From Escherichia phage garuso, in the sequence record MN850566.1: a stretch of 64,000 bases of DNA; one strand, given 5' to 3'. The notes under the pieces are model-generated. The model ran no database searches and was not told the origin of the DNA. It saw nothing but the letters and a program-made list of their open reading frames with translations. The stretch's first letter is position 1, and each line of letters begins with the position of its first letter. The position numbers and the translations under genes were made by a program. Shown one piece after another: positions 1 through 43,522 of this stretch.

Positions 1-2057
1 ATGTTTGTGTTGATAAACAAACTCAAGAGTACTCAGATATGGCTGGACGACTGCTTTTGGGTATTATCTACAAAGAAGCCTTTGGAGGCTTTACTAAGGT
101 TCCTACGCTGGTTACCTTCGTTAAAAATATGGAGAGAGCAGGACTTTGGGAGAAGATGGATTATTCACAGGAAGAGCTTGAATACCTGCAAGGTTACATC
201 GTACACTCAAAAGATATCTCTTACGGTTATGCAGTCTTGAAACAGTTCAGAGACAAGTATGGTATCCGTGATATTAAAACAGGAAGACTTTTTGAGTCAC
301 CACAATTTATGTTTATGGGTATGGCTATGAAAGCCTTTGAGAAGCAACCAAAGCACCGTAGACTGCAAGATGTTATCAAGCTGTACACTTACCTATCTGA
401 CCTGAAGATTAATGCTCCTACGCCTTATTTAAATGGTTTAAGAGCTACTAAATCAGGTTATGCGTCATGCTGTTTGATTAAGGCGAATGATACTGCTGAA
501 TCTCTAGGTATTGCTGCAAAGGTTGCCTATGACATGACCACAAAGCAAGCTGGTATTGGGATGCTGATGGAGACTCGCACTATTGGTGATGGCATCCGTC
601 AAAATACTATTGAACACATGGGTAAGCTGCCTTATTATAAGCTTGTACGTTCATCTGTAGAGGCAAACAAACAGAAGAGTCGTGGTGGTTCAGCTAATAA
701 CTTCTACACTGCTCTAGACCCGCAGATTGAAGATTTACTGCGTTTGAAGCACCCTACAACGGTTCCTTCTAAACGTATTAATGAGATGGACTACTCATTC
801 GGCACAAACGATTATTTCTGGCAGTGTGTTCAGTATGATACAGATTGGTTGCTATTCTCTTACAAAGATGCACCAAAACTCTATGACATGTTCTACACAG
901 CATCTGCTGATGAGTTTGCTATGGCAGTTGGTCACGCAGTACATTCAGGAGTTAAGCACAGACGAGTAAAGGCTCGTGAAATTGCTAAGCTGTTTATTCA
1001 ACAGCGTTATGCTACAGGTCGTGTGTATCCATTCTTCACTAACAATGCAAACACGCATACACCATTTAAAGAGTCATTGAAGATGTCAAATCTTTGTATG
1101 GAAATTGTGTTGCCAGTGTATGGTTTTGAGAAAGAGACAGACCTTTACAGAGATGATGCTGTGAAAGAGGATGGTGAGGTGGCTCTTTGCTTCCTAGCTA
1201 GTTTGGTTGCAGGGAGAATTTCAGAAGATGAATACGCTGACGTTGCTTATTATGCTCTTGCAATGGTTGACTCCGTTATTGACCTTATGGATTATCCGTA
1301 TCCGTCGATGCGTAACCATGTTCAGAAGCGTCGTTCTGTTGGGATTGGCCTTACAAATGTGGCTCATTACCTTGCGAAGAACTACGTGAACTACTCTTCA
1401 CGAGCAGGTAAAACGAAGCTTCATGAGCTTGCTGAAATGCACTCTTACTATCTGCATGAAGCCTCTCTGAGACTTGCTAAAGAGCGTGGTGTTCCAGAGT
1501 ACATGAAGTTCACTAAGTATCCTGAAGGCTGGGTTCCTCCAAAGACAGCTAACAAGAAGATTGATGAAAAGCATGATGCAAAACTAAGATATGATTGGGA
1601 TGACTTAGCACAACGTATCAAAGAGAATGGTGGAATCCGAAACTCTGTATTAGAAGCTTACATGCCTAATGAGAGTTCTTCACTAGCAACTAATACGACA
1701 AATGGCTTGTACCCAATTCGTGACTTTATTTTAACTAAAAAATCTGCAACTGGTAACGTACTGTTTATTGTTCCAGATTATGAAGAGTTGAAGTATGTTT
1801 ATGAAATTGCTTGGGATATTGACACCTTTGATATGATTGATTGTTATGCAATTGTTCAAAAGTTCACTGGTCAAGCTATTTCTTCAGACTTCTATGTTGA
1901 CTATGCAAAGTCTAAGAAGGTATCATTGGCTCAAGCTTTGAAGTACATGATTTATGCCAACTCAGTTGGTATGAAAACCATGTACTACCTTAACAGTCGC
2001 ATTGGTGTAGGTAAATCTGCACTGCAAGATGCTTATTGCGAGGGTTGTGGTGTTTAG
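1..2057 (+). CDS. nrdA: Ribonucleotide reductase class I large (alpha) subunit, 5'-partial (runs off window start)
   Basis: Frame-3 ORF open from nt 3 with no stop before the first in-window ATG at 39; RNR-alpha active-site motif SNLCMEIVLP and C-terminal redox tail CEGCGV; followed by nrdB. Confidence 0.85.
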   Translation, partial: VCVDKQTQEYSDMAGRLLLGIIYKEAFGGFTKVPTLVTFVKNMERAGLWEKMDYSQEELEYLQGYIVHSKDISYGYAVLKQFRDKYGIRDIKTGRLFESPQFMFMGMAMKAFEKQPKHRRLQDVIKLYTYLSDLKINAPTPYLNGLRATKSGYASCCLIKANDTAESLGIAAKVAYDMTTKQAGIGMLMETRTIGDGIRQNTIEHMGKLPYYKLVRSSVEANKQKSRGGSANNFYTALDPQIEDLLRLKHPTTVPSKRINEMDYSFGTNDYFWQCVQYDTDWLLFSYKDAPKLYDMFYTASADEFAMAVGHAVHSGVKHRRVKAREIAKLFIQQRYATGRVYPFFTNNANTHTPFKESLKMSNLCMEIVLPVYGFEKETDLYRDDAVKEDGEVALCFLASLVAGRISEDEYADVAYYALAMVDSVIDLMDYPYPSMRNHVQKRRSVGIGLTNVAHYLAKNYVNYSSRAGKTKLHELAEMHSYYLHEASLRLAKERGVPEYMKFTKYPEGWVPPKTANKKIDEKHDAKLRYDWDDLAQRIKENGGIRNSVLEAYMPNESSSLATNTTNGLYPIRDFILTKKSATGNVLFIVPDYEELKYVYEIAWDIDTFDMIDCYAIVQKFTGQAISSDFYVDYAKSKKVSLAQALKYMIYANSVGMKTMYYLNSRIGVGKSALQDAYCEGCGV

Positions 2058-2112
2058 TTTTAATAACTATGAGGGTCGTAAAAGACCCTCTAAAAATAAC
2101 TTTGGAGAGACC

Positions 2113-2370
2113 ATGAAAGATTTAATAGAAAAACATGAGCGACCTATATACTTGCTCCACAAGCCTCGGAAAACGATGTACTATGTGAGTAGCACAGATA
2201 TGATGATAAAACAAAAGGATGACTCATGGGTTGCTGGTATCTCTTACATCTCCACAGTAGATGGTAAAATCTATGCAAGACCTTATGAGATGTTTAACAA
2301 AGAAAATTGGGAAGTTTTAGACAGAAAACAAGCCTCAGAAATGATAAAGAAAGGAGAAATCACACTATGA
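2113..2370 (+). CDS. Hypothetical protein (85 aa)
   Basis: In-frame ATG at 2113 inside track ORF 2029..2370, preceded by GGAGAG; stop overlaps nrdB start (ATGA). Confidence 0.45.
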   Translation: MKDLIEKHERPIYLLHKPRKTMYYVSSTDMMIKQKDDSWVAGISYISTVDGKIYARPYEMFNKENWEVLDRKQASEMIKKGEITL

Positions 2371-3440
2371 TTAACCAGCACCCAATCTTTTTAGGTGGTG
2401 AGAGAAAAACTTTTGACTCACTCAATAAGCACTACCCAAAAATCTTTGAACTTTATAAACAACAAAAAGCACAAGATTGGTCAGAAGATGAGTTCCCTTT
2501 TGAACAATCACGTCTTGATTTTGAGAGTGTCCCAGCATCAATGTCAGGTGTAATGCTTGAGATTCTTAAGTGGCAATGGGAAGCAGACACTCAAGTTGCT
2601 AAGAGCTTGGCATTTGCCTTTGCACCTTTTATCTCTGATGACATATATGCAACTGCAATTATGAAGCAGTCTGAGATTGAAAACCTACATGCTCTTACTT
2701 ACTCAGAGATTGTAAGGCAATGTATTAAAAACCCTGAAACAATCTTAGATGAGATTAACCAGAATGTTGCTGTGCAAGACCGATTAAAAACTGTGAATCG
2801 TGTTCTTGAAGAATTATTGGATGAAGGGATAAACTACCGACTGAGTTATGTACGTGATTCACTTCTGGACAAAGACCCTTTACACTTCCATAAAGTGATT
2901 CTAAAAGGTCTGTTTGCAGTGACTGCACTTGAAGGTATATCTTTTATGGCATCCTTTGCATGTACCTTTGCACTTGATGCTCAAGATAAATTTCAGGGTA
3001 TTGCTCAAGCTGTCCAGAAGATTATGCTTGACGAAATCCTTCACACTAAAATTGATATTGAAGTTTTAAAAGAAACTTTAAGAGATGATGAGTGGCAGAA
3101 AGCTTTTCAACAGATTCTTCCAGAGATTAAAGTAATCTTAGATGAAGTAGTTGAAAGTGAAGAGAAATGGTCGTATTATATCTTCTCCGAAGGACGTGCT
3201 GTAGTTGGCTTAAATACAAAGCTTCTTCATGAGTGGGTTTACTATAATGCTGCCCCACTGTATGATATGTTTGGCATTCCAAGAGATTTTGTAGCTCCCA
3301 AAGAACCACCTTTGAAGTACATGATTAAGAAGATGGAAATTGATAAAGAGCAGAATGCTAATCAGGAGCAACAGAACGGTGCGTACCTGTTGAATACTGT
3401 TGTAGATGATTTGAATAGTGGATTTTTAGAGGTTCCTTAA
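2367..3440 (+). CDS. nrdB: Ribonucleotide reductase class I small (beta) subunit
   Basis: Ferritin-like R2 features (…ALEGISFMASFACTFAL…, EILHTKIDIE); ATG 2367 preceded by AAAGGAG; track ORF starts upstream at 2307. Confidence 0.85.
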   Translation: MINQHPIFLGGERKTFDSLNKHYPKIFELYKQQKAQDWSEDEFPFEQSRLDFESVPASMSGVMLEILKWQWEADTQVAKSLAFAFAPFISDDIYATAIMKQSEIENLHALTYSEIVRQCIKNPETILDEINQNVAVQDRLKTVNRVLEELLDEGINYRLSYVRDSLLDKDPLHFHKVILKGLFAVTALEGISFMASFACTFALDAQDKFQGIAQAVQKIMLDEILHTKIDIEVLKETLRDDEWQKAFQQILPEIKVILDEVVESEEKWSYYIFSEGRAVVGLNTKLLHEWVYYNAAPLYDMFGIPRDFVAPKEPPLKYMIKKMEIDKEQNANQEQQNGAYLLNTVVDDLNSGFLEVP

Positions 3441-3682
3441 TGACTTATATAATTTACTCCAAAACTGGATGCCCTCAGTGTGAGACTGCAAAGAATTTTG
3501 CAAAAGCTCGTGGTATTGACCATGTTGTGAGAATGTTAGGGCAGGATTATGAACTGTCAGACCTGATGGATATTGCACAGATGCCAGTTCGTCAGATGCC
3601 ATTCATCATGAAAACCGATGGACAAAACCTAAAACCTGTTGGGACGCTACAGAATTTTATGGCAGAGGTGAATAATGCTTAA
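3440..3682 (+). CDS. Glutaredoxin/NrdH-like redoxin (CPQC active site)
   Basis: 80-aa ORF with N-terminal CPQC dithiol motif; start overlaps nrdB stop (TAATGA); sits between nrdB and nrdD. Confidence 0.7.
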   Translation: MTYIIYSKTGCPQCETAKNFAKARGIDHVVRMLGQDYELSDLMDIAQMPVRQMPFIMKTDGQNLKPVGTLQNFMAEVNNA

Positions 3683-3881
3683 ACGCATTTGGGAAGGTTT
3701 GGTTGTTGATGCACCAGCTATTGTGATTGGTATGCTTATTGTTAACCTATTTACTGACTTTGAACAAGGTTCATTGTTTGGAGCCATGTTACTATGGGTT
3801 ATCTTCGAAATATTAGAGATACAGCTAGGCATCACTGAAAAACTAAGAGAAATCTTTGCGAAGTTTTCTAAAAAGATTTAA
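3675..3881 (+). CDS. Small hydrophobic protein (68 aa)
   Basis: Track ORF with predicted membrane helix; followed by intrinsic terminator at about 3888-3910. Confidence 0.35.
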   Translation: MLKRIWEGLVVDAPAIVIGMLIVNLFTDFEQGSLFGAMLLWVIFEILEIQLGITEKLREIFAKFSKKI

Positions 3882-3887
3882 AATGAA

Positions 3888-3910
3888 AGGGTCTCTTCGG
3901 AGACCTTTTT
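3888..3910 (+). terminator. Intrinsic terminator
   Basis: GGTCTC-TTCG-GAGACC hairpin followed by TTTTT. Confidence 0.6.
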
Positions 3911-3929
3911 AGCATGTAAAGGGGCAATA

Positions 3930-6074
3930 ATGAACAAAGTACAGATTATTAAAAAGAATGGCTCACTTGAAGAACCTGATATCAAAAAAGTTTTAGCAGC
4001 AGTCACAAAGTCAGCTAACAGAGTTGGTTATAAAGAGCTTCCACCAGATGTTACTCAAGCTCTTGAGTCAGCATTTATGAGGATTCTGGTAAAGTCCACT
4101 AAGCAGAATAATTTGCTAATTTCGGTAAATGATATTCACAGTATTGTTGAGGGTGCTTTGGCAGAAGTCAATCACGAGATTTATGAGTCTTACTCAACAT
4201 ATAGAAATTACCGTAAAGAGGTTGCTCAAAATTGGGATGAGCTTTACCAAAAGACTAGAGATACACTCTTCTTAGGTGACCGTGAAAATGCTAACTTTGA
4301 CAGCAGTTTAATTTCTACAAAAGGCTCAATTATTCGTGGTTACTTGACTAAAGAAATCTTTAAACAGTACCATTTAACACCAGAGGAACTTGAAGCCATT
4401 GAAAAAGGGTTTATCTACATCCATGATTTAAGAGACCTAATTTTTGGTGGTATCAACTGTTGCCTGTTTGACATCGGTAAAGTACTGAAAGGTGGCTTTG
4501 AAATGTCTGGTATCGAATACTGTGAACCAAAGTCTGTGCTGTCAGCCTTACAGGTTATTGGCGATGTAGTTCTTTCAGCAACTGCACAGCAATTTGGTGG
4601 CTTTACTTTAGCAGAGATTGATAAGGTACTTGTACCGTATGCTAAAAAATCTTTAGTGTACCACTCAGAGAAAGCTGAAGAGTACGGAATACCTAAAGAG
4701 CAACACTATAATTACGTAATGGAGCAATTACAGAATGAGTTAACACAAGGTTTCCAATCTCTTGAAATGAAACTTAACACTGTTCCTTGCAGTCGCGGTG
4801 ATTTTGCATTTACTACTCTGACATTTGGCCTGTTGGAACCAGATATGCACAATGAAGATAACCGTCTTCAGTTTATGATTACCAATACAATCCTTAATGT
4901 AAGGATGAACGGGCAAGGAAAAAGCAAAAAACCTGTTGTGTTTCCTAAACTTGTGTATATCTATGAAGAGACAAGACATAAACTTGATGTATGCCAAGCA
5001 AGGTTGTTTGAAAAAGCTATTGAGTGTTGCTCTAAAGCGATGTATCCAGATTTCTTAAGTGTATCTGGTCATGGTGCTGTAGCAGATGCTTTTAAGCGTT
5101 CTGGTAAGGTGATTTCACCGATGGGTTGCAGAGCTTTCTTATCTCCATATCTTAACGAGAATGGAGAAGAGTTCTATGTTGGTCGTGCTAACATTGGTGC
5201 TGTATCTTTGAACTTGCCAATGATTTACCAGTATTCTAAAGAGAATGGTTTAGATTTCTGGAAAGAGCTTGATAAGTACCTAGAGATGATTCGCAGCTTC
5301 CACAAGAAACGCTACGAAATGATTGCTAACATGCCAGCAAGCTCTAACCCTCTTGCATTCACACAGGGTGGTCTGTACAAAGGGAATAAGAAACCTACTG
5401 ACAAGGTTGGCTGGGATATCGTGAAGTCCTTCACAGCTTCTTTTGGGGTTACTGCGCTTGATGAGCTATCTGTTCTTGCTGAAGGTAAACGACTCCATGA
5501 AGTTGGAAGCTGTAGTTTTGCATATGATGTTCTGGCATACATTAACATGAAAACTGAAGAGTTTAAGAACGAAGATGGCTTCTTGTATGCGGTATATGGC
5601 ACTCCAGCAGAATCACTTTGTGGAACTCAGTTAAAACAGTTCAGAGATATGTTTGGCGTTATTAAAGGTGTCTCTGACAAGGAATACTTTACAAACAGTT
5701 TCCATATGAATGTTGCAGCAGACATCTCACCATTTGAGAAGCAGGACTTAGAAGAGCCATTCTTCCATATCTGTAGAGGTGGTAGAATCCAGTATGTAAG
5801 GGTAGCTAACCCAGAAAACTTAACAGCACTTAAAAGTTGTATTACAAGAGGGATGTTGAAAGGTTTCTATCAGGGGCTTAACTTTGACTTAGCAATCTGT
5901 GAACATTGTGGTAACAGACCAAAGGCTGATGTTGAAGAATGTGAGGTTTGCCATTCACATGATATCTCTGTGATTAACAGGGTGTGCGGGTACTTGTCAT
6001 TCACAAAAATTAAAGGTCAGTCTCGAATGAATGACGCTAAGATGGCAGAAATTAAGGATAGGGTTTCTATGTAA
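3930..6074 (+). CDS. nrdD: Anaerobic ribonucleoside-triphosphate reductase (class III)
   Basis: 714-aa ORF; C-terminal glycyl-radical motif (…VINRVCGYLS…) preceded by Cys-rich Zn ribbon (CEHCGN…CEVCHS); GGGG RBS before ATG. Confidence 0.85.
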   Translation: MNKVQIIKKNGSLEEPDIKKVLAAVTKSANRVGYKELPPDVTQALESAFMRILVKSTKQNNLLISVNDIHSIVEGALAEVNHEIYESYSTYRNYRKEVAQNWDELYQKTRDTLFLGDRENANFDSSLISTKGSIIRGYLTKEIFKQYHLTPEELEAIEKGFIYIHDLRDLIFGGINCCLFDIGKVLKGGFEMSGIEYCEPKSVLSALQVIGDVVLSATAQQFGGFTLAEIDKVLVPYAKKSLVYHSEKAEEYGIPKEQHYNYVMEQLQNELTQGFQSLEMKLNTVPCSRGDFAFTTLTFGLLEPDMHNEDNRLQFMITNTILNVRMNGQGKSKKPVVFPKLVYIYEETRHKLDVCQARLFEKAIECCSKAMYPDFLSVSGHGAVADAFKRSGKVISPMGCRAFLSPYLNENGEEFYVGRANIGAVSLNLPMIYQYSKENGLDFWKELDKYLEMIRSFHKKRYEMIANMPASSNPLAFTQGGLYKGNKKPTDKVGWDIVKSFTASFGVTALDELSVLAEGKRLHEVGSCSFAYDVLAYINMKTEEFKNEDGFLYAVYGTPAESLCGTQLKQFRDMFGVIKGVSDKEYFTNSFHMNVAADISPFEKQDLEEPFFHICRGGRIQYVRVANPENLTALKSCITRGMLKGFYQGLNFDLAICEHCGNRPKADVEECEVCHSHDISVINRVCGYLSFTKIKGQSRMNDAKMAEIKDRVSM

Positions 6075-6136
6075 AACTTGACAAGGTGGTGTGGGTCTTG
6101 ATAGGCTTACATCACCTTTTTATTTGGAGTTACATT

Positions 6137-6472
6137 ATGGACTTGTGGCTTTATGTAGCAGTTTGTGGGATTGTATGTCTGATAATCTTATTTATTCTTG
6201 GAATAATGCGATTTAGAGACATCATACAGTCAGATTTTTTGCCTGAGTTTACCATGATAGTTGGAGTTATTACACTTTGTGTCTTGGCTGTGTTCTATTC
6301 ATACAAAACTGTGATATGGATGGAGGCAAACAATTGTGTAAAAACTCATCAGCATCGTGAGGTTACTCATTTTGTGAGTGTACTTAGTGGTAGCACCACT
6401 ATACTTGTCCCACAAACTTCTGTAGAGTATCTTTACACATGTGATAATGGTAAAACTATATGGTGGAATTAA
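6137..6472 (+). CDS. Membrane protein (111 aa)
   Basis: In-frame ATG at 6137 with GGAG RBS inside track ORF 6086..6472; strongly hydrophobic N-terminal half. Confidence 0.4.
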   Translation: MDLWLYVAVCGIVCLIILFILGIMRFRDIIQSDFLPEFTMIVGVITLCVLAVFYSYKTVIWMEANNCVKTHQHREVTHFVSVLSGSTTILVPQTSVEYLYTCDNGKTIWWN

Positions 6473-6675
6473 CAATGACAACACTCTTAAAAGTATTGAT
6501 ACCCATACTACATATAGCAGTCTTCTTTTTTGGTGTTAGTGTTATGGTATGGGGATTTTCAGACCCACAATGGAGTTTCTCATATCATGGTCAGATGGAT
6601 TTATGGTCATGCTTCAAACCATTTTTAGGGTTAGCTATAGCATTCAGTGCATTACCAACTAAGGTGAAATTATGA
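6460..6675 (+). CDS. Small membrane protein (71 aa)
   Basis: Track ORF; hydrophobic segment; overlaps neighbours by a few nt. Confidence 0.35.
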   Translation: MVELTMTTLLKVLIPILHIAVFFFGVSVMVWGFSDPQWSFSYHGQMDLWSCFKPFLGLAIAFSALPTKVKL

Positions 6676-7067
6676 TTAAGTTGAACCAAAAACAGTTAGA
6701 GTGGATTAAAGATTATGCCTCAGAGTGTGGCTCTTGTGAAAAGAATCACGTAAGGTACTCAACATTCCATACGAACTTCACATTGTATATTGGTGACAAT
6801 GTTCTAAGTGATTCTGTAGAAGATGGTGTAGTATTGCCTAATGAATTACTTGATAAACTAGCTGTAGTCTCTGGAACTTGGTCTGAAGAAGATGGTCACG
6901 AGCTGTCTGATGATGTTGTCTTCTACACCCTTGAAAACATCATGAACCCAGAGTACATTATGCTAATGACTTGCGCACAAGATTGTGTACCATTACAAAA
7001 CTTCATTAAAGAGCACTGTGAAGAATTTATTACTAAACAGGTTCCTTGTCAGGTGGTATTTGAATGA
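6672..7067 (+). CDS. Hypothetical protein (131 aa)
   Basis: Track ORF; start overlaps upstream stop; no recognised motif. Confidence 0.45.
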   Translation: MIKLNQKQLEWIKDYASECGSCEKNHVRYSTFHTNFTLYIGDNVLSDSVEDGVVLPNELLDKLAVVSGTWSEEDGHELSDDVVFYTLENIMNPEYIMLMTCAQDCVPLQNFIKEHCEEFITKQVPCQVVFE

Positions 7068-7363
7068 GTAAAACAATTCGAAGAAAAGGTTTAAAGAACG
7101 TTCATGGACTTTATGAGTGGAGAAATGAGGTACGTAACAGAGAAAATGCTTCAGAGGTCTACTACCACTCTGATATGATGTCTAGAAAAGGTGGCTCTTA
7201 CGACTTCACAAGCCAGCCTTGTAGAGAGATTAAGAAGGCTACTAAACGTCTTACAAGAACACAAATAAGGCAGCTTTCTAAGACATCCTACTTAGATGAA
7301 GACTTTGACATTGATAGCAAGTCTCCAAAGAAAGCTGCTCAGAGCACTTATATGTATTGGTGA
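7064..7363 (+). CDS. Hypothetical protein (99 aa)
   Basis: Track ORF; overlapping start/stop with neighbour. Confidence 0.45.
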   Translation: MSKTIRRKGLKNVHGLYEWRNEVRNRENASEVYYHSDMMSRKGGSYDFTSQPCREIKKATKRLTRTQIRQLSKTSYLDEDFDIDSKSPKKAAQSTYMYW

Positions 7364-7372
7364 GGTAACTAG

Positions 7373-7858
7373 ATGAATTACATGGAGATTCGACCATTTG
7401 ATACAGCTAATGGTGAAGGGGTTCGTGTAAGCCTCTTCGTAGCTGGCTGTAAACATCACTGTGAAGGCTGCTTTAACAGGGAGTCTTGGAAGTTTAATGC
7501 TGGTAAAGTGTTCACTTATGCAAACCTCTACGGCATCATTAAGTTAATGGATGATGATGCTGTCAGTGGGCTGTCAATACTTGGTGGAGAACCTCTGGAT
7601 GATAGAAATATTCAAGAGGTTACCAACATATGCAAACGTATTAAAACCGTTTACCCAGAAAAATCTATCTGGCTCTGGACAGGTTTTCAGTTACACGAAA
7701 AAATTCACCTAGATGTGATGAAATATGTTGACGTGGTGATTGATGGTAAGTATGATTCATCTAAACCAACAGTTAAACCATATCGTGGTTCTGATAACCA
7801 AAACCTCTGGAGAAAAGAGTATGGATGGCAAGGCGATTGTCAATGGCGAGCAGAGTGA
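7373..7858 (+). CDS. nrdG: Anaerobic RNR activating enzyme (radical SAM)
   Basis: 161-aa ORF with CxxxCxxC cluster (VAGCKHHCEGCFN) typical of glycyl-radical activases; downstream of nrdD. Confidence 0.8.
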   Translation: MNYMEIRPFDTANGEGVRVSLFVAGCKHHCEGCFNRESWKFNAGKVFTYANLYGIIKLMDDDAVSGLSILGGEPLDDRNIQEVTNICKRIKTVYPEKSIWLWTGFQLHEKIHLDVMKYVDVVIDGKYDSSKPTVKPYRGSDNQNLWRKEYGWQGDCQWRAE

Positions 7859-8096
7859 TTATTCTGGCAAATGGACTTACGACATCAACAAGTTAGATGC
7901 TTGGATGATTTATACGAGAGAAAAATTTGGTGCAAGTTCATTATGTGCTCTTGCAACGATGGTGAAGAACGTTACCTTTGACATTCATGACTCAGATAAG
8001 TTTGGAGACTTCTACAGGATTCAAAACATCAGAGAAGGCATGACTCCAATTGGTATCACTGAAGAAGAACTTCATAAGTTCTGTATTAAACTTTAA
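7821..8096 (+). CDS. Hypothetical protein (91 aa)
   Basis: In-frame ATG at 7821 inside track ORF 7740..8096 that overlaps the nrdG 3' end; AGAAAAGAG upstream. Confidence 0.4.
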   Translation: MDGKAIVNGEQSDYSGKWTYDINKLDAWMIYTREKFGASSLCALATMVKNVTFDIHDSDKFGDFYRIQNIREGMTPIGITEEELHKFCIKL

Positions 8097-8377
8097 TGAG
8101 AGAGACTAAAATGGGAATTTTAGGTAATATGAAAGCTGGCTTCTTGAAGGCACTGGCAAAAGCAGCAGCAATCATTTCTATGACTGGAAAGCAGGTTGGT
8201 GTAGATGCTTCAGCAGTTGCACAAGTTCTTACAAGCCAAATTGAACAGCAACCTTACATCTACGTAGGCCGTGGCAAAGGTGGTAAAAAACAAGCACATC
8301 GACCAACTGGTGCAGCAGCAATTAAACGTGCAGCTAAAAAAGCTCGTAACCGTAAACGTAATAAGAAGGCTAAATAA
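8096..8377 (+). CDS. Hypothetical protein with Lys/Arg-rich C-terminus (93 aa)
   Basis: Track ORF; C-terminal KRAAKKARNRKRNKKAK. Confidence 0.45.
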   Translation: MRETKMGILGNMKAGFLKALAKAAAIISMTGKQVGVDASAVAQVLTSQIEQQPYIYVGRGKGGKKQAHRPTGAAAIKRAAKKARNRKRNKKAK

Positions 8378-8379
8378 TC

Positions 8380-8700
8380 ATGAGCAAAGTTTATAACACT
8401 CGCAAATTACAGATTTTCGTACTGTGCCAGTTTATGGCTAAAGAATACAACTTCTACTATTGCGGCACAGGTTTTATTAGCGACGATGATGGTTCATACC
8501 TACCATTCAAAGAAGCTGTAAAACTCTTTAATGAAGAGAAAAGCTCTAAGAAAGATATTGAAAAGGTTAAGCTAACTTACAGTAAGAAAGATAAGAAGAT
8601 TATCTGCCTAGATAACTTTGTAAAAGTTACTGGAGAAGCAAAAGAGTTTATGGATGAGAGTGAGATTTCATTCACAAGCATCTTGAAAGTAGCTCAGTAA
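8380..8700 (+). CDS. Hypothetical protein (106 aa)
   Basis: Track ORF; followed by intrinsic terminator at about 8713-8741. Confidence 0.45.
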   Translation: MSKVYNTRKLQIFVLCQFMAKEYNFYYCGTGFISDDDGSYLPFKEAVKLFNEEKSSKKDIEKVKLTYSKKDKKIICLDNFVKVTGEAKEFMDESEISFTSILKVAQ

Positions 8701-8751: not shown

Positions 8752-9267
8752 ATGTATCTGTCAAACCTAAAACGTTCTGCTGCAATGTCAGTGCTAAGAC
8801 TCAGCTTTGAGGAACGTCAAGAGTTCATTGACTCCCACCAATACGACCCTTCTAACTCCAATCACATGATTCTCTGGAATCGTGGCAGTACTCGTGAAAG
8901 AGCACTATTCCGTTACTACCCGCATTACACCATAGATAACCTGTATGAATGTTTTGTTGTGAAGAACACCATTACAGTACTTAATAGACTTTGCAGATAC
9001 ACAGGTAGTCAATCCTTCACATTAGGCCACCACAAACCTGTTACAAAGGGTGGTGAGCATCACTGTGCGAACTGGTTTATCCAAACTAAAGCTGATAACC
9101 AGAAGCAAGGAGATAGACTCCTAAGCATCCCTAAGATGACCTATGAAGAGCAAGAGAAATATATCAAAAATAATATGCCAGATGTGCTTGACAACAACTA
9201 TACAGATTTGGCAATATCTCTCCTGTTGAAGTTCGAGACAGTTTATAGGGCAACTTACAATGGCTAA
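8752..9267 (+). CDS. HNH homing endonuclease-like protein
   Basis: 171-aa ORF with HNH-like motif (…GHHKPVTKGGEHHCANWFIQTKADNQKQGDR…); sits between nucleotide-metabolism genes. Confidence 0.55.
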   Translation: MYLSNLKRSAAMSVLRLSFEERQEFIDSHQYDPSNSNHMILWNRGSTRERALFRYYPHYTIDNLYECFVVKNTITVLNRLCRYTGSQSFTLGHHKPVTKGGEHHCANWFIQTKADNQKQGDRLLSIPKMTYEEQEKYIKNNMPDVLDNNYTDLAISLLLKFETVYRATYNG

Positions 9268-9549: not shown

Positions 9550-10431
9550 ATGAAAACTGTTATTGAAGCCGTCGTCACCGCACAAGAGAAATTCTTCCAC
9601 ACAGAAAAATTTAATATCATTCAATTCCCATCTGGAGAAATTGGTGGAAACTTCTCTGAAGATTTTGTTAAGTTTACTGAGCGTAATGCTGGTAAGATTG
9701 ATAATGTTATAATTACTGTACAGGGATATGACAAAGATACACTGTTTGCATTAGCTTTGGCTAAGGATGCCGTTGACAGTCTTGTTCCCCAGAAATCAGC
9801 GATGAAAACCGTTGTTTTCGGGTTCTTACCAAATGCTCGATATGACCGCCACATGTTCAAAGGTGATGCAGCAGCACTGAAAGTCTTTGCCAACCTAGTT
9901 AATGCAATGGGTTTTGATGCAGTATGTGCTCTTGACCCTCACAGTAATGTTGCAGAAAACTTATTTAAGTGCTTTCAAAGCATGAAGCAAAAAGATGTGG
10001 CAGTACACTTTGCAAGTGACCCACGCATTGATTTCTTGGTAGCCCCAGATGCAGGTGCAGCTAAGAAGACTGAAGATACCGCTAAAGAGGTGGATAAACC
10101 GTATATCACAATGTCTAAGGTGCGCAATCTTAAGACTGGTGAAATTACTGGTATGCGAATCCTTGATGATGTTGATTTGACAGATAAAACTGTCATGATT
10201 CTGGATGATATTTGTGATGGAGGCCGAACCTTCGTAGAGGCAGCTAAACACCTACGTGAAGCAGGTGCAAAACGTGTGGAACTCTATGTAACTCATGGTA
10301 TTTTCTCTAAAGGTGTTGAAAACTTACTTGACAACGGTATTGACCATATCTACACTACAAACACTTTAGGTGAAGCTAAAGACCGTGGCTTAACACATTA
10401 CGCCCAAGTTACTGTAGCAACCATTGATTGA
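9550..10431 (+). CDS. Ribose-phosphate pyrophosphokinase (Prs)-like protein
   Basis: ATG 9550 inside track ORF 9535..10431; type-I phosphoribosyltransferase signature (VMILDDICDGGRTFVEAAKHLREAGAKRV); directly upstream of the NAMPT-like gene. Confidence 0.75.
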   Translation: MKTVIEAVVTAQEKFFHTEKFNIIQFPSGEIGGNFSEDFVKFTERNAGKIDNVIITVQGYDKDTLFALALAKDAVDSLVPQKSAMKTVVFGFLPNARYDRHMFKGDAAALKVFANLVNAMGFDAVCALDPHSNVAENLFKCFQSMKQKDVAVHFASDPRIDFLVAPDAGAAKKTEDTAKEVDKPYITMSKVRNLKTGEITGMRILDDVDLTDKTVMILDDICDGGRTFVEAAKHLREAGAKRVELYVTHGIFSKGVENLLDNGIDHIYTTNTLGEAKDRGLTHYAQVTVATID

Positions 10432-10476
10432 AACTTTATAGGGGCTTGAAAGCCCCACTTTGAGAGAGATTAAAAG

Positions 10477-12258
10477 ATGACTAAATCACTTTACGCAGTA
10501 CCAGCAGGTCTTAATGCAGATGCTTACAAGGCATCACATATATATCAGTATCCAGATGCTACGCAATATCTTATGTTGAACCTGACACCACGTAGTGATA
10601 AATGGTTTAACAGCCCTTTGGCAATTGACGGTGTAGTGGCTTTTGGTATTCAACGTTTCGTTAAAGATTACTTGATAGACCACTGGAACGCCACTTTCTT
10701 TGAACGTGATAAAAAAGAAGCCATTGATGAAATCTTAGAAATCATGAATGGTGTTCTGGGTAAAGATGCTATCGGTCGAGAGCACTGGGAAGCACTTCAC
10801 GACTTAGGTTATCTACCAGTTGAAGTATACGCTGTAGAAGAAGGTACAGTTGTCCCTATGCGCGTCCCAATGATTGTCTTCCAGAACACTGTTTCAGGCT
10901 TCCATTGGGTAGCGGGGTATCTGGAAGATGCTTTCTCTGCTGAGATTTGGAAGGCTTGTACCATTGCAACTATTGCATTGCACTACAAACGTATCTGTAA
11001 GAAGTGGGCTGACCTTACTTGTGACAACGACTTGCATTTGCCTTATCAGTGCCATGACTTTGCTATGCGTGGTATGTCCGGCTTTACTGATGACGCATTT
11101 AACGCTGTAGGCCACTTAACCAGCTTTAAAGGAACTGATAGCTTCCCTGCTGTGTATACGGCTAAACGAATCTATGGACAGTCCTACCCAATCTCTGATA
11201 TTGGTAGCTCTGTACCAGCCACTGAGCACTCTGTAATGTGTGCAAACATTGCTTGGGAAGGTGGTAATGAGTTGATTGAAGAAGAAAGACGCTTTAAAGG
11301 TGAGTTACAAACCTTCCGTCGTTTCTTAACAGAAACTTACCCAACTGGTATTGCAAGTGTTGTTTCAGACACTTATAACTTCTGGAGAACTGTGTCAGAA
11401 ATTTTACCAGCACTTCGTAAAGAAATTATGGAACGTGATGGCAAACTGGTAATTCGTCCTGACTCTGGAGACCCTGTACATATTGTCACAGGTTATAAAG
11501 CAATCCACTTAGAATGTGCTAAAAAGGCTTATTACGAGCACCTAAGCAAGCTGGAAGCCAGTGACACAATGTTGAATGCTGTTCTGAACATGAAGCTTGA
11601 AAATATCAACTATGGTATTGCTGGATGGCTACTGTCAGAAGGCTACGAAATGGTTGTTGACAGAGAAGACTTTGAAGTTGCTGATACAGTGATGTTGAAA
11701 AATGCTTATATGGTTGGTTCTGCAAACGTTGTAACACGTCCTGTAGCTGAGATTGATGGAGCTATTAAGACACTGTACAACATTTTTGGGGGAACTATTA
11801 ACTCTAAAGGGTTTAAGGTACTGGATGAGCATATCGGACTTATCTATGGTGACTCTATCACGCTGGAACGTGCAAACGAAATCCTGAAGCGTCTGTATGA
11901 AATGGGGTTTGCAAGCTCTAACGTGGTGTTTGGTGTAGGCTCTTACACTTACCAGTACATGACTCGTGACACCTTTGCATTTGCTGTCAAAGCAACTCTT
12001 GCAAGCATTGGTGGCAAAGAGATTATGCTTGCAAAAGACCCTAAAACAGATAGTGGTGTTAAGAAATCTGCCTTTGGTGGTGTAGCGCCTATGTGGGATG
12101 GTGATAAGTTGAAAGCTGTAGATGGCTATGGAATACAGAGTTTTGCAGATGCACTTGAACACCCAGCTTGTGCTTTACGTTTAGTCTTTAGCGACTCTGA
12201 GCAGTTCGGTTATACAACTCTTGGTGATATTCGAAATAATATTGACAAGCAGCTTTAA
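10477..12258 (+). CDS. Nicotinamide phosphoribosyltransferase (NAMPT/NadV)-like protein
   Basis: 593-aa ORF; N-terminal NAMPT-like motif (…DAYKASHIYQYP…); GAGAGAG RBS; terminator downstream at about 12273-12296. Confidence 0.75.
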   Translation: MTKSLYAVPAGLNADAYKASHIYQYPDATQYLMLNLTPRSDKWFNSPLAIDGVVAFGIQRFVKDYLIDHWNATFFERDKKEAIDEILEIMNGVLGKDAIGREHWEALHDLGYLPVEVYAVEEGTVVPMRVPMIVFQNTVSGFHWVAGYLEDAFSAEIWKACTIATIALHYKRICKKWADLTCDNDLHLPYQCHDFAMRGMSGFTDDAFNAVGHLTSFKGTDSFPAVYTAKRIYGQSYPISDIGSSVPATEHSVMCANIAWEGGNELIEEERRFKGELQTFRRFLTETYPTGIASVVSDTYNFWRTVSEILPALRKEIMERDGKLVIRPDSGDPVHIVTGYKAIHLECAKKAYYEHLSKLEASDTMLNAVLNMKLENINYGIAGWLLSEGYEMVVDREDFEVADTVMLKNAYMVGSANVVTRPVAEIDGAIKTLYNIFGGTINSKGFKVLDEHIGLIYGDSITLERANEILKRLYEMGFASSNVVFGVGSYTYQYMTRDTFAFAVKATLASIGGKEIMLAKDPKTDSGVKKSAFGGVAPMWDGDKLKAVDGYGIQSFADALEHPACALRLVFSDSEQFGYTTLGDIRNNIDKQL

Positions 12259-42248: not shown

Positions 42249-42327
42249 GCTCCATTACTCCAATTGGCAGAGAGGCCAGACTTAAAATCTGTGTTATGTA
42301 TCGGTTCGAATCCGATATGGAGTACCA
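42249..42327 (+). tRNA. tRNA-Leu (anticodon TAA), short (7-nt) variable arm
   Basis: Acceptor GCTCCAT/ATGGAGT, A73, Leu-type D-arm (CTC-CAATTGGCAGA-GAG), loop CTTAAAA, T-arm ATCGG-TTCGAAT-CCGAT, CCA encoded. Confidence 0.55.
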
Positions 42328-42332
42328 AATTT

Positions 42333-42408
42333 AGCGGCATAGCATAACTGGCAATGCAGCAGTCTCTGAAGCTGTCTTATTAAGGTTCAAATCCTTATGC
42401 CGCTGCCA
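42333..42408 (+). tRNA. tRNA-Gln (anticodon CTG)
   Basis: Acceptor AGCGGCA/TGCCGCT, D-arm GCAT…ATGC, anticodon stem GCAGT/GCTGT with loop CTCTGAA, T-arm TAAGG-TTCAAAT-CCTTA, CCA encoded. Confidence 0.7.
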
Positions 42409-42439
42409 CTTCTAAGGATTCTTACGAGAGTCCTTAAAT

Positions 42440-42515
42440 GTGGCCTTATCATAAACGGTAATGACCCATGCTGTGAACATGGTCTATACGGGTTCAAATC
42501 CCGTAGGTCACCCCA
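42440..42515 (+). tRNA. tRNA-His (anticodon GTG)
   Basis: Acceptor GTGGCCT/AGGTCAC, D-arm TCAT…ATGA, anticodon stem CCATG/CATGG with loop CTGTGAA, T-arm ACGGG-TTCAAAT-CCCGT, CCA encoded. Confidence 0.7.
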
Positions 42516-42520
42516 ATTTA

Positions 42521-42597
42521 TAGTCCAAGTAGCTTATATGGTTAAAGCGCGTGTCTGAAAAACATGAGAAGAGGGTTCAAATCCCACTGGACTACCA
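42521..42597 (+). tRNA. tRNA-Phe (anticodon GAA)
   Basis: Anticodon stem CGTGT/ACATG with loop CTGAAAA, T-region GAGGGTTCAAATCCCAC; acceptor/discriminator assignment ambiguous; 3' end overlaps the GTG-initiated extension of the next track ORF. Confidence 0.6.
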
Positions 42598-42613
42598 ATT
42601 TCAAAGGTGCTTA

Positions 42614-43348
42614 ATGAAAGAGATGACAGAACAAGGTAAGGAGATTTTCAATCTCTTAAAAACTGGTAAAGGGTTTTCTAACCCCCTTATTACTGGTGCA
42701 GCAGTTCTCGGTGGAACCGTAGCTGCCTCCACATCACTTGTAAGCTCTATTAGTTCTGTATCAGACCCTACAGTAAAAGATAAGCTTGTTGCTGCTGGAC
42801 TTACAACAGTTCTGCTTAACAGCTTTACCACGAGTCTGACAAGCACTACATCAACTACCAAAACACTAACAGATTACGGTCAAAAATCCATTGATGAGTT
42901 TTCATCACGTATGCAGGTAGCAAAAGGTTATTCTAATGTTATGGGTGCAGCAGGTGAACAAGTTGGCTGTACACCATTTAGTGGTATTATGGGTGTTGCT
43001 ACAGAGTATGGTCAAAAAGCTATTGATACGATTAACAGTGCACTAGATAGTGTTAATGGTGTGTTAAGTGACTTACAAGATGCTATTGACAAAGGTCTTG
43101 ATACTATTTCTGATTTAGCTGAGCAAGCTGTTAGTAAGATTAATGAAGGTATTTCAAAAATTACAGCTTATGCAGATGAAGTTGTGCAGATGATTGAAGA
43201 AGAAGCTGCTCTTATTGCAGAGTACCTTAAAACGAATATCAATGGGTTCTTAGCAGGTATCTTACCAGACTGGTTTGATGATGCTTGTAAAACTGGTGTA
43301 ATTGACACTATTGCAACACCAGAAATGAAGAACGCATTACAGAAATAA
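42614..43348 (+). CDS. Hypothetical Ser/Thr-rich protein (244 aa) inside the tRNA cluster
   Basis: In-frame ATG at 42614 (AGGTG RBS) inside track ORF 42551..43348, whose GTG start would overlap tRNA-Phe; low-complexity S/T-rich N-terminal half. Confidence 0.5.
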   Translation: MKEMTEQGKEIFNLLKTGKGFSNPLITGAAVLGGTVAASTSLVSSISSVSDPTVKDKLVAAGLTTVLLNSFTTSLTSTTSTTKTLTDYGQKSIDEFSSRMQVAKGYSNVMGAAGEQVGCTPFSGIMGVATEYGQKAIDTINSALDSVNGVLSDLQDAIDKGLDTISDLAEQAVSKINEGISKITAYADEVVQMIEEEAALIAEYLKTNINGFLAGILPDWFDDACKTGVIDTIATPEMKNALQK

Positions 43349-43349
43349 T

Positions 43350-43442
43350 GGAAGATTAACCCTAAAAGGTAAGGGAGCAGTTTGCTAAACTGCCAGTAGC
43401 TGAGAAATCGGTGTACCAGTTCAAGTCTGGTATCTTCCTCCA
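43350..43442 (+). tRNA. tRNA-Ser (anticodon GCT), long variable arm
   Basis: Acceptor GGAAGAT/ATCTTCC, anticodon stem GCAGT/ACTGC with loop TTGCTAA, long variable arm, T-arm ACCAG-TTCAAGT-CTGGT, CCA encoded. Confidence 0.7.
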
Positions 43443-43446
43443 ATTT

Positions 43447-43522
43447 GAATCCGTGACAGAAATGGATATGTGCCTGTCTGCAAAACAGGTTTATAAGGGT
43501 TCGAGTCCCTTCGGATTCTCCA
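43447..43522 (+). tRNA. tRNA-Cys (anticodon GCA)
   Basis: Acceptor GAATCCG/CGGATTC, U73, anticodon stem CCTGT/ACAGG with loop CTGCAAA, T-arm AAGGG-TTCGAGT-CCCTT, CCA encoded. Confidence 0.7.

Follow-up and report, generated by a model that had tools for sequence, protein, structure and literature searches.

Class Ia and class III ribonucleotide reductase genes of Escherichia phage garuso and an empty intron site in its nrdD

Gene order and relatives of the nrd region

We analysed positions 1-7858 of a 64,000-nucleotide (nt) stretch of Escherichia phage garuso (MN850566.1), the whole of which is called the window here, and found in them the genes of two ribonucleotide reductases (RNR): nrdA and nrdB of class Ia, and nrdD and nrdG of class III. 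All genes of the region lie on the + strand. Their order is nrdA, orf85 (ORF, open reading frame), nrdB, a gene for a redoxin with a CPQC active site, an ORF of 68 amino acids (aa), nrdD, orf111, a 71-aa ORF, orf131, orf99 and nrdG, and the end coordinate 7858 is exactly the stop codon of nrdG. Adjoining genes often overlap, by 1-13 nt, and overlaps of this size between so many neighbours suggest translational coupling.

The 8-kilobase (kb) region showed 99.5% nt identity with Escherichia phage bumzen (Felixounavirus, MN850635) and 93-97% with many other Felixounavirus genomes. The 8-kb query was matched by 261 records, nearly all of them named Escherichia, Salmonella, Shigella, Citrobacter or Felixounavirus, and the match covered the nrd genes in nearly all the listed Felixounavirus records. 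Bumzen and Felix O1 have the same genes as the window, in the same order and orientation on a single strand, apart from orf99, which is absent in Felix O1. The proteins of bumzen are 96.5-100% identical to those of the window and the proteins of Felix O1 90.7-100%, and nrdD is uninterrupted in all three phages.

We conclude with high confidence that positions 1-7858 are the module for deoxyribonucleoside triphosphate (dNTP) supply of a virulent Felixounavirus, a Felix O1-like myovirus of E. coli and Salmonella, and that it comprises an oxygen-dependent and an oxygen-independent RNR. The module is already known and ordinary, and is near-identical to those of phages in the databases. The Felix O1 genome paper (2010, Whichard et al.) described the nrdABDG cluster, named a glutaredoxin-like protein of 80 aa as its likely reductant, and noted that introns were absent (PMC3185647). 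Class I and class III enzymes are found together in about 27% of the phage genomes that encode an RNR (PMC3653736). Both reports bear out the preliminary description of this DNA, made from its letters alone, where such a gene set was considered expected for a large virulent phage. The window proves to be a Felixounavirus genome with an intact dNTP-supply module, in which nrdA is cut by the window edge; the finding has little wider weight.

The same region might be read as host or prophage DNA with bacterial nrd operons and not as a module of a virulent phage. Among solved structures, NrdA, NrdB and NrdD are closest to enterobacterial-type enzymes, and the NrdD of the window has an ATP-cone, a domain that the NrdD of T4 (605 aa) lacks. 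However, the identity of NrdA and NrdB to the E. coli proteins is distant, the small ORFs among the nrd genes and the genes on either side belong to phage-specific PHROG families, and a cluster of 25 tRNA genes and other phage genes stand elsewhere in the window. The 99.5% nt identity to a lytic Felixounavirus genome effectively refutes a host or prophage origin, and we give it practically no probability.

The two reductases and the CPQC redoxin

The large subunit of the class Ia RNR is encoded by nrdA (1-2057, + strand), which is truncated at its 5' end by the window edge. Its frame is open leftward to nt 1 and the first full codon starts at nt 3, giving a fragment of 3-2057. The nrdA of bumzen starts 178 nt upstream of window nt 1 and has a product of 744 aa, with residues 61-744 encoded inside the window. 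The part beyond the edge, residues 1-59 plus the first base of codon 60, makes up most of the N-terminal ATP-cone-like region. The reductase sets had been called complete in the preliminary description, and this stands for nrdB, nrdD and nrdG but not for nrdA, the start of which is beyond the left edge. NrdA matched the Pfam families Ribonuc_red_lgN (PF00317, 53.7 bits) and Ribonuc_red_lgC (PF02867, 305.2 bits, E=1e-90) and the NCBIfam model TIGR02506 NrdE_NrdA (579.7 bits, cut-off 341), and it aligned with E. coli R1 (4r1r_A, E=5e-121) without insertions. The R1 residues C225, N437, C439, E441, C462, Y730 and Y731 are all kept, as C216, N423, C425, E427, C456, Y721 and Y722 of the window protein. 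A C-terminal cysteine pair is present as CEGC (C739/C742); its spacing, CxxC, differs from the CxxxxC of E. coli NrdA, where the pair is C754/C759.

The small subunit, with its di-iron site and tyrosyl radical residues, is encoded by nrdB (2367-3440, + strand; 357 aa). NrdB scored 119.7 bits on Ribonuc_red_sm (PF00268, cut-off 33.6, E=2e-34), and its alignment with E. coli R2 (E=2.5e-27) was again free of insertions. Nine R2 residues (W48, D84, E115, H118, Y122, E204, E238, H241 and Y356) are all kept, and correspond to W38, D74, E105, H108, Y112, E189, E223, H226 and Y340 in the window protein.

The class III catalytic subunit is encoded by nrdD (3930-6074, + strand; 714 aa), which is uninterrupted. 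NrdD matched NRDD (PF13597, 384.7 bits, E=1e-114), together with ATP-cone (residues 5-97) and Gly_radical, and scored 490.6 bits on TIGR02487 (cut-off 326). It aligned without insertions with T4 NrdD (1h78, E=2e-77), the best stretch starting at residue 118 of the window protein, downstream of the ATP-cone, and C79, C290 and N311 of the T4 enzyme are C177, C400 and N421 here. A Zn ribbon (C657, C660, C671 and C674) and the glycyl-radical motif RVCGY, with G687, were also found. The activase of NrdD, a radical S-adenosylmethionine (SAM) protein of 161 aa, is encoded by nrdG (7373-7858, + strand). NrdG matched Fer4_12 (PF13353, 146.7 bits, E=7e-43), Radical_SAM and TIGR02491 (195.1 bits, cut-off 126.1), and carries the cluster motif C26-x3-C30-x2-C33 (C26-KHH-C30-EG-C33).

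The homology searches confirmed, with matches far beyond chance, the NrdA, NrdB, NrdD and NrdG families and the CPQC redoxin that had earlier been read from motifs. Alignment to the Nrd proteins of T4 and Felix O1, which had been proposed as the check, agreed with them: next to the high identity with Felix O1 given above, T4 showed 31% identity in NrdA, 46% in NrdG and 264 bits in NrdD. T4 shares both RNR classes and their catalytic residues with the window, but its nrd genes are scattered over two distant regions, and mobE lies between its nrdA and nrdB. The domain architecture of the E. coli class Ia NrdAB and class III NrdDG is that of the window proteins, and the E. coli NrdD has the ATP-cone, the core, the Zn ribbon and the glycyl-radical motif in common with the phage protein.

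Between nrdB and the 68-aa ORF, a gene at 3440-3682 (+ strand) encodes the redoxin of 80 aa with the active site C11-P-Q-C14; its start overlaps the nrdB stop, and the CPQC motif is encoded at nt 3470-3481. The protein matched Glutaredoxin (PF00462) with 29.4 bits (cut-off 22.9) and, among PHROG families, phrog_22 'thioredoxin domain'. Its AlphaFold2 model (predicted local distance difference test, pLDDT, 91) has the βαβαββα order as in glutaredoxin. A Foldseek search of the PDB with this model gave Grx1, the Grx domain of a hybrid peroxiredoxin and Grx3 as best matches, with Grx2 among the top ones, and the template modelling (TM) scores to the Grx1, Grx3 and NrdH folds were 0.68-0.76, NrdH being the weaker. 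In the family alignment C11, P12, C14 and P54 are invariant, P54 standing at the conserved cis-proline position, and CPQC is present in 12 of the 13 aligned homologues (the remaining one has CPMC). A word-seeded search for relatives gave only 26 clusters, all 72-96% identical and of no aid to classification; the few named clusters came from Mooglevirus phages, phiSUSP1, E. coli and Shigella. NrdH and NrdC of T4 were also compared, and neither showed significant similarity to the redoxin. From its predicted fold and its score on PF00462, the CPQC protein is best described as a glutaredoxin-fold dithiol redoxin, a member of PF00462.

Nothing that we saw contradicts the reading as a dNTP-supply module, and several low scores qualify the assignments made above. 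The ATP-cone of full-length NrdA, taken from the 100%-identical bumzen protein, reached 20.5 bits against a Pfam threshold of 25.8, and therefore feedback regulation by deoxyadenosine triphosphate (dATP) may differ from that in E. coli. NrdB scored 131.6 bits on the strict NCBIfam equivalog PRK09101, where the cut-off is 346, which marks it as a diverged class Ia beta subunit. NrdA and NrdD were likewise below the cut-offs of the E. coli-type NCBIfam equivalogs (PRK09103, 478 against 813; PRK09263, 442 against 657). For the redoxin, all the specific NCBIfam glutaredoxin and NrdH models were far below their cut-offs, and they place it in neither the glutathione-dependent nor the thioredoxin-reductase-dependent type.

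The CPQC protein might thus be an NrdH-type redoxin, reduced by the host thioredoxin reductase rather than by glutathione, and not a true glutaredoxin. The Gln at the third position of CxxC is common to CPQC and the active-site motif of NrdH, which is C(V/M)QC. The NrdH model TIGR02194 was the second-best NCBIfam match (E=4e-5), E. coli NrdH (1h75) was among the fold matches (TMq 0.68), and the family alignment shows no evident classical GG/CDD motif for glutathione binding. On the other hand, TIGR02194 gave only 23.6 bits against a cut-off of 85.75, and PRK10329 19.4 against 131, and the sequence does not contain WSGFRP, the signature motif of NrdH. Glutaredoxins typically have a Pro at position 2 of the motif (CPYC), as CPQC does, their folds give the best matches (Grx1 and Grx3), and the usual partner of NrdH is the class Ib NrdEF, not a class Ia enzyme. 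By its motif, by the absence of WSGFRP and by its scores on the NrdH models, the protein falls outside the NrdH-redoxins. We regard an NrdH type as possible but doubtful, and prefer the glutaredoxin-fold dithiol redoxin.

The conserved residues, read together with the mechanism of the E. coli class Ia enzyme, allow an aerobic route to be proposed. NrdB would hold a di-iron centre and a tyrosyl radical at Y112 (E. coli Y122), and the radical would pass along W38 and Y340 of NrdB and then Y722 and Y721 of NrdA to C425, which would initiate the reduction of ribonucleoside diphosphates. The C216-C456 disulfide of NrdA would be reduced via the C-terminal C739/C742, and this pair is probably re-reduced by the 80-aa CPQC protein, the putative electron donor, whose gene appears co-transcribed and translationally coupled. 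The anaerobic route is modelled on the class III enzymes of T4 and E. coli. The [4Fe-4S] cluster of NrdG (C26, C30, C33) and SAM would generate a glycyl radical on G687 of NrdD, this would give a thiyl radical at C400 for the reduction of ribonucleoside triphosphates, and formate is the most likely reductant, as for the T4 and E. coli enzymes. With Nrd proteins predicted from their sequences to be active, the phage would be able to produce dNTPs both in infected cells with oxygen and in those without it.

The empty intron site and the divergence of nrdD

The frames of NrdA, NrdB and NrdD are continuous, and the three proteins are free of insertions relative to E. coli R1, E. coli R2 and the spliced T4 NrdD. 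A permissive Rfam search of window 1-8200 gave no match at E <= 1, so there is no group I intron signal in it, and a search of the whole 64-kb window at gathering scores returned tRNAs only. A hidden or degenerate intron, or another RNA element in the nrd region, was considered and was absent from these Rfam results. These results uphold the earlier observation that nrdA, nrdB and nrdD have no interruption. It had been set in contrast to some T4-type phages, and as to the absence of introns this is right: nrdB and nrdD of T4 carry group I introns and the nrd genes of the window none. However, the closer comparison is with the phage's own genus, in which many members have a group I intron in nrdD.

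Comparison with Tribble, a phage that has this intron, located an empty group I intron insertion site, GATGGGT|TGC, at 5126-5127 (+ strand), directly 5' of the codon for the catalytic Cys400 (TGC, 5127-5129). In the alignment the Tribble insert, about 742 nt long, falls precisely between nt 5126 and 5127 of the window (…CCGATGGGT|TGCAGAGC…), and taking out this insert restores …SPMG|CRAFL…. The last base of the upstream exon is T and that of the insert is G. As judged by eye, GATGGGT of the exon can base-pair with intron positions 15-21 (GCTCATC), a U·G pair falling at the splice site. Tribble, pinkbiff, UAB_Phi87 and REP6 all have the same gene and flanks as the window at 93-97% nt identity, but with an intron in nrdD. 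Relatives often matched the 8-kb query in two pieces, and their nrdD is annotated as two coding sequences flanking an HNH endonuclease gene; a split nrdD in the genus Felixounavirus has already been reported (PMC4837284).

We found two forms of the Felixounavirus nrdD intron, one of about 742 nt with an HNH endonuclease ORF (Tribble locus, 6127-6868) and one of 315 nt without an endonuclease ORF (REP6 locus, 401-715). The 315-nt intron of REP6, used as positive control, scored 53.6 bits on Rfam RF00028 (gathering score 50). With 33.1 bits (E=2e-6) the Tribble insert fell short of the gathering score of Rfam Intron_gpI, and its 3' core carries GAAGAUAUAGUCU. The 3' part of the insert is about 71% identical to a region annotated td and I-TevI in T4-like genomes. 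The site of the T4 nrdD intron is a different one: exon 1 of T4 ends after E179, a position equivalent to window nt 4766 or so and some 120 codons before the Cys codon site of Felixounavirus, and a common site was rejected.

At least 96 of about 261 Felixounavirus-type records carry the nrdD intron at >=90% identity, 61 of these at full length, a count estimated from BLAST summaries. Thus in at least about one third of the related genomes an intron stands directly before the codon of the catalytic cysteine. The site is empty in this window, bumzen, heid and Felix O1, and the genus is thus polymorphic at this site, the nrdD of the window being an allele without the intron. Within 60 nt of downstream exon next to the site, Tribble, which has the intron, shows 12 substitutions relative to the window and intron-less Felix O1 shows 3, and in the intron-containing alleles this exon patch changes three residues (P, L and N to S, H and Y). 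Such dense exon substitutions downstream of the intron fit co-conversion during homing. A mildly useful point is that a phage with an empty nrdD site would be a natural recipient for tests of intron homing in mixed infections.

We also compared the nrd genes with those of Felix O1 (NC_005282). The protein identities are 99.9% for NrdA, 100% for NrdB, 97.5% for the redoxin (Grx), 94.0% for NrdD and 90.7% for NrdG. The nt identity is 97.7% in nrdA (47 nt changes, 1 aa change), 98.0% in nrdB (22 and 0), 90.5% in nrdD (203 and 43) and 88.9% in nrdG (54 and 15). Summed over each pair, nrdA and nrdB have 69 nt differences and 1 aa difference, and nrdD and nrdG have 257 and 58. The Nrd proteins are of the same lengths as the Felix O1 proteins, and the genes are under strong purifying selection. 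To judge from these sequences, the aerobic enzyme would be much more tightly constrained, or more recently exchanged, than the anaerobic pair.

The greater divergence of nrdD and nrdG might be taken to mean that both are under relaxed constraint and heading for loss, so that only NrdAB would matter to the phage, and that a mobile intron in the genus targets nrdD would agree with this. However, the frames of nrdD and nrdG are intact and at full length, all the checked catalytic Cys, Gly, Zn and Fe-S residues of their products are kept, and just 21-28% or so of the nt changes in them alter an amino acid. Both genes are under a match in nearly all the listed Felixounavirus records, and an intron at the catalytic codon implies that nrdD must remain functional after splicing. 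We consider such relaxed constraint on a course to loss extremely unlikely.

Small ORFs, transcript units and neighbouring genes

Six small conserved ORFs are interleaved with the nrd genes. All of them belong to phage-only PHROG families, one labelled 'membrane protein' and five carrying no functional label, and none reached a Pfam threshold. The first, orf85 (2113-2370, + strand; phrog_2652, E=3e-38), lies between nrdA and nrdB, and its stop overlaps the nrdB start (ATGA). Membership of orf85 in DUF1653 was unsupported (13.1 bits, E=0.12), and no homology to T4 nrdB.1 was found. The hydrophobic 68-aa ORF (3675-3881, + strand; phrog_4532, E=1e-41) overlaps the end of the redoxin gene and probably encodes a membrane protein, as it is annotated in bumzen and Felix O1; it showed no homology to T4 55.8, which adjoins T4 nrdH.

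The other four lie between nrdD and nrdG. A hydrophobic protein without a Pfam family is encoded by orf111 (6137-6472, + strand; phrog_8826), the start of which was set at the ATG downstream of the terminator described below, the start also used in Tribble. It is followed by the 71-aa membrane protein (6460-6675, + strand; phrog_11929 'membrane protein', E=2e-44) and by orf131 (6672-7067, + strand; phrog_4382, E=1e-63), a conserved ORF 96.9% identical to ORF120 of Felix O1. The last is orf99 (7064-7363, + strand; 99 aa), which matched phrog_1774 (E=4e-28) and is DUF5499-like, with 22.4 bits on PF17603, below the cut-off of 27. It is present in bumzen and Tribble, and Felix O1 has only a 59-nt gap at that position, indicating a gene-sized indel inside the nrd block.

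Three hairpins were seen between the genes. A terminator-like hairpin, GGGTCTC-TTCG-GAGACC followed by TTTTT, was read from the sequence before nrdD (3889-3911, + strand), and in phage Tribble the corresponding position carries a terminator annotation. A strong terminator-like hairpin, with a 16-bp stem followed by TTTTTATTT, a T-rich tail, stands directly after nrdD (6083-6127, + strand). The two suggest three transcript units, which would run from nrdA to the 68-aa ORF, over nrdD alone, and from orf111 to nrdG. A scan for promoters was uninformative, giving 31 sites where 24 were expected by chance. The third hairpin, GC-rich and with a perfect 7-bp stem (GAGGGTC-GTAAAA-GACCCTC, 2071-2090), lies between nrdA and orf85 and lacks a T-tract on the + strand; it may serve RNA processing or stability, or may be due to chance.

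The small ORFs coupled to the nrd genes might be phage-specific accessory factors of the RNRs and not fillers. The candidates may be orf85, the 68-aa membrane protein and the two hydrophobic ORFs after nrdD, and they may anchor a dNTP-synthesising complex to the membrane or arrange it there, or feed electrons to the CPQC redoxin. This idea was drawn from their conserved position, from the stop/start overlaps and from the lack of a known family, and we think it very unlikely to be right.

In T4 and Felixounavirus alike, small ORFs and homing endonuclease genes are interspersed in the nrd regions. Bumzen has HNH and GIY-YIG homing endonuclease genes in 1-643 of the locus compared, about 2 kb upstream of nrdA and so beyond the left edge of the window, and a gene for a MazG-like pyrophosphohydrolase lies between them and nrdA. 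To the right of nrdG, the window ORF at 8380-8700 matched DUF7390 and is annotated 'putative HNH homing endonuclease' in bumzen and Tribble, and the ORF at 8752-9267 contains an HNH-like string (HHKPVTKGGEHHCANW) and had no significant Pfam match. At 9550-12258, prs (ribose-phosphate pyrophosphokinase) is directly followed by an ORF of 593 aa, which sits where bumzen has nadV (nicotinamide phosphoribosyltransferase); in Felix O1 an HNH endonuclease gene separates prs from nadV, and the window has none there.

Farther along the window, the tRNA cluster (38045-43522, + strand) contained 25 genes by ARAGORN and 24 by Rfam, among them two tRNA-Met, three tRNA-Leu, two tRNA-Lys, two tRNA-Gln and two tRNA-Ser. 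For Felix O1, 22 tRNA genes were reported (PMC3185647).

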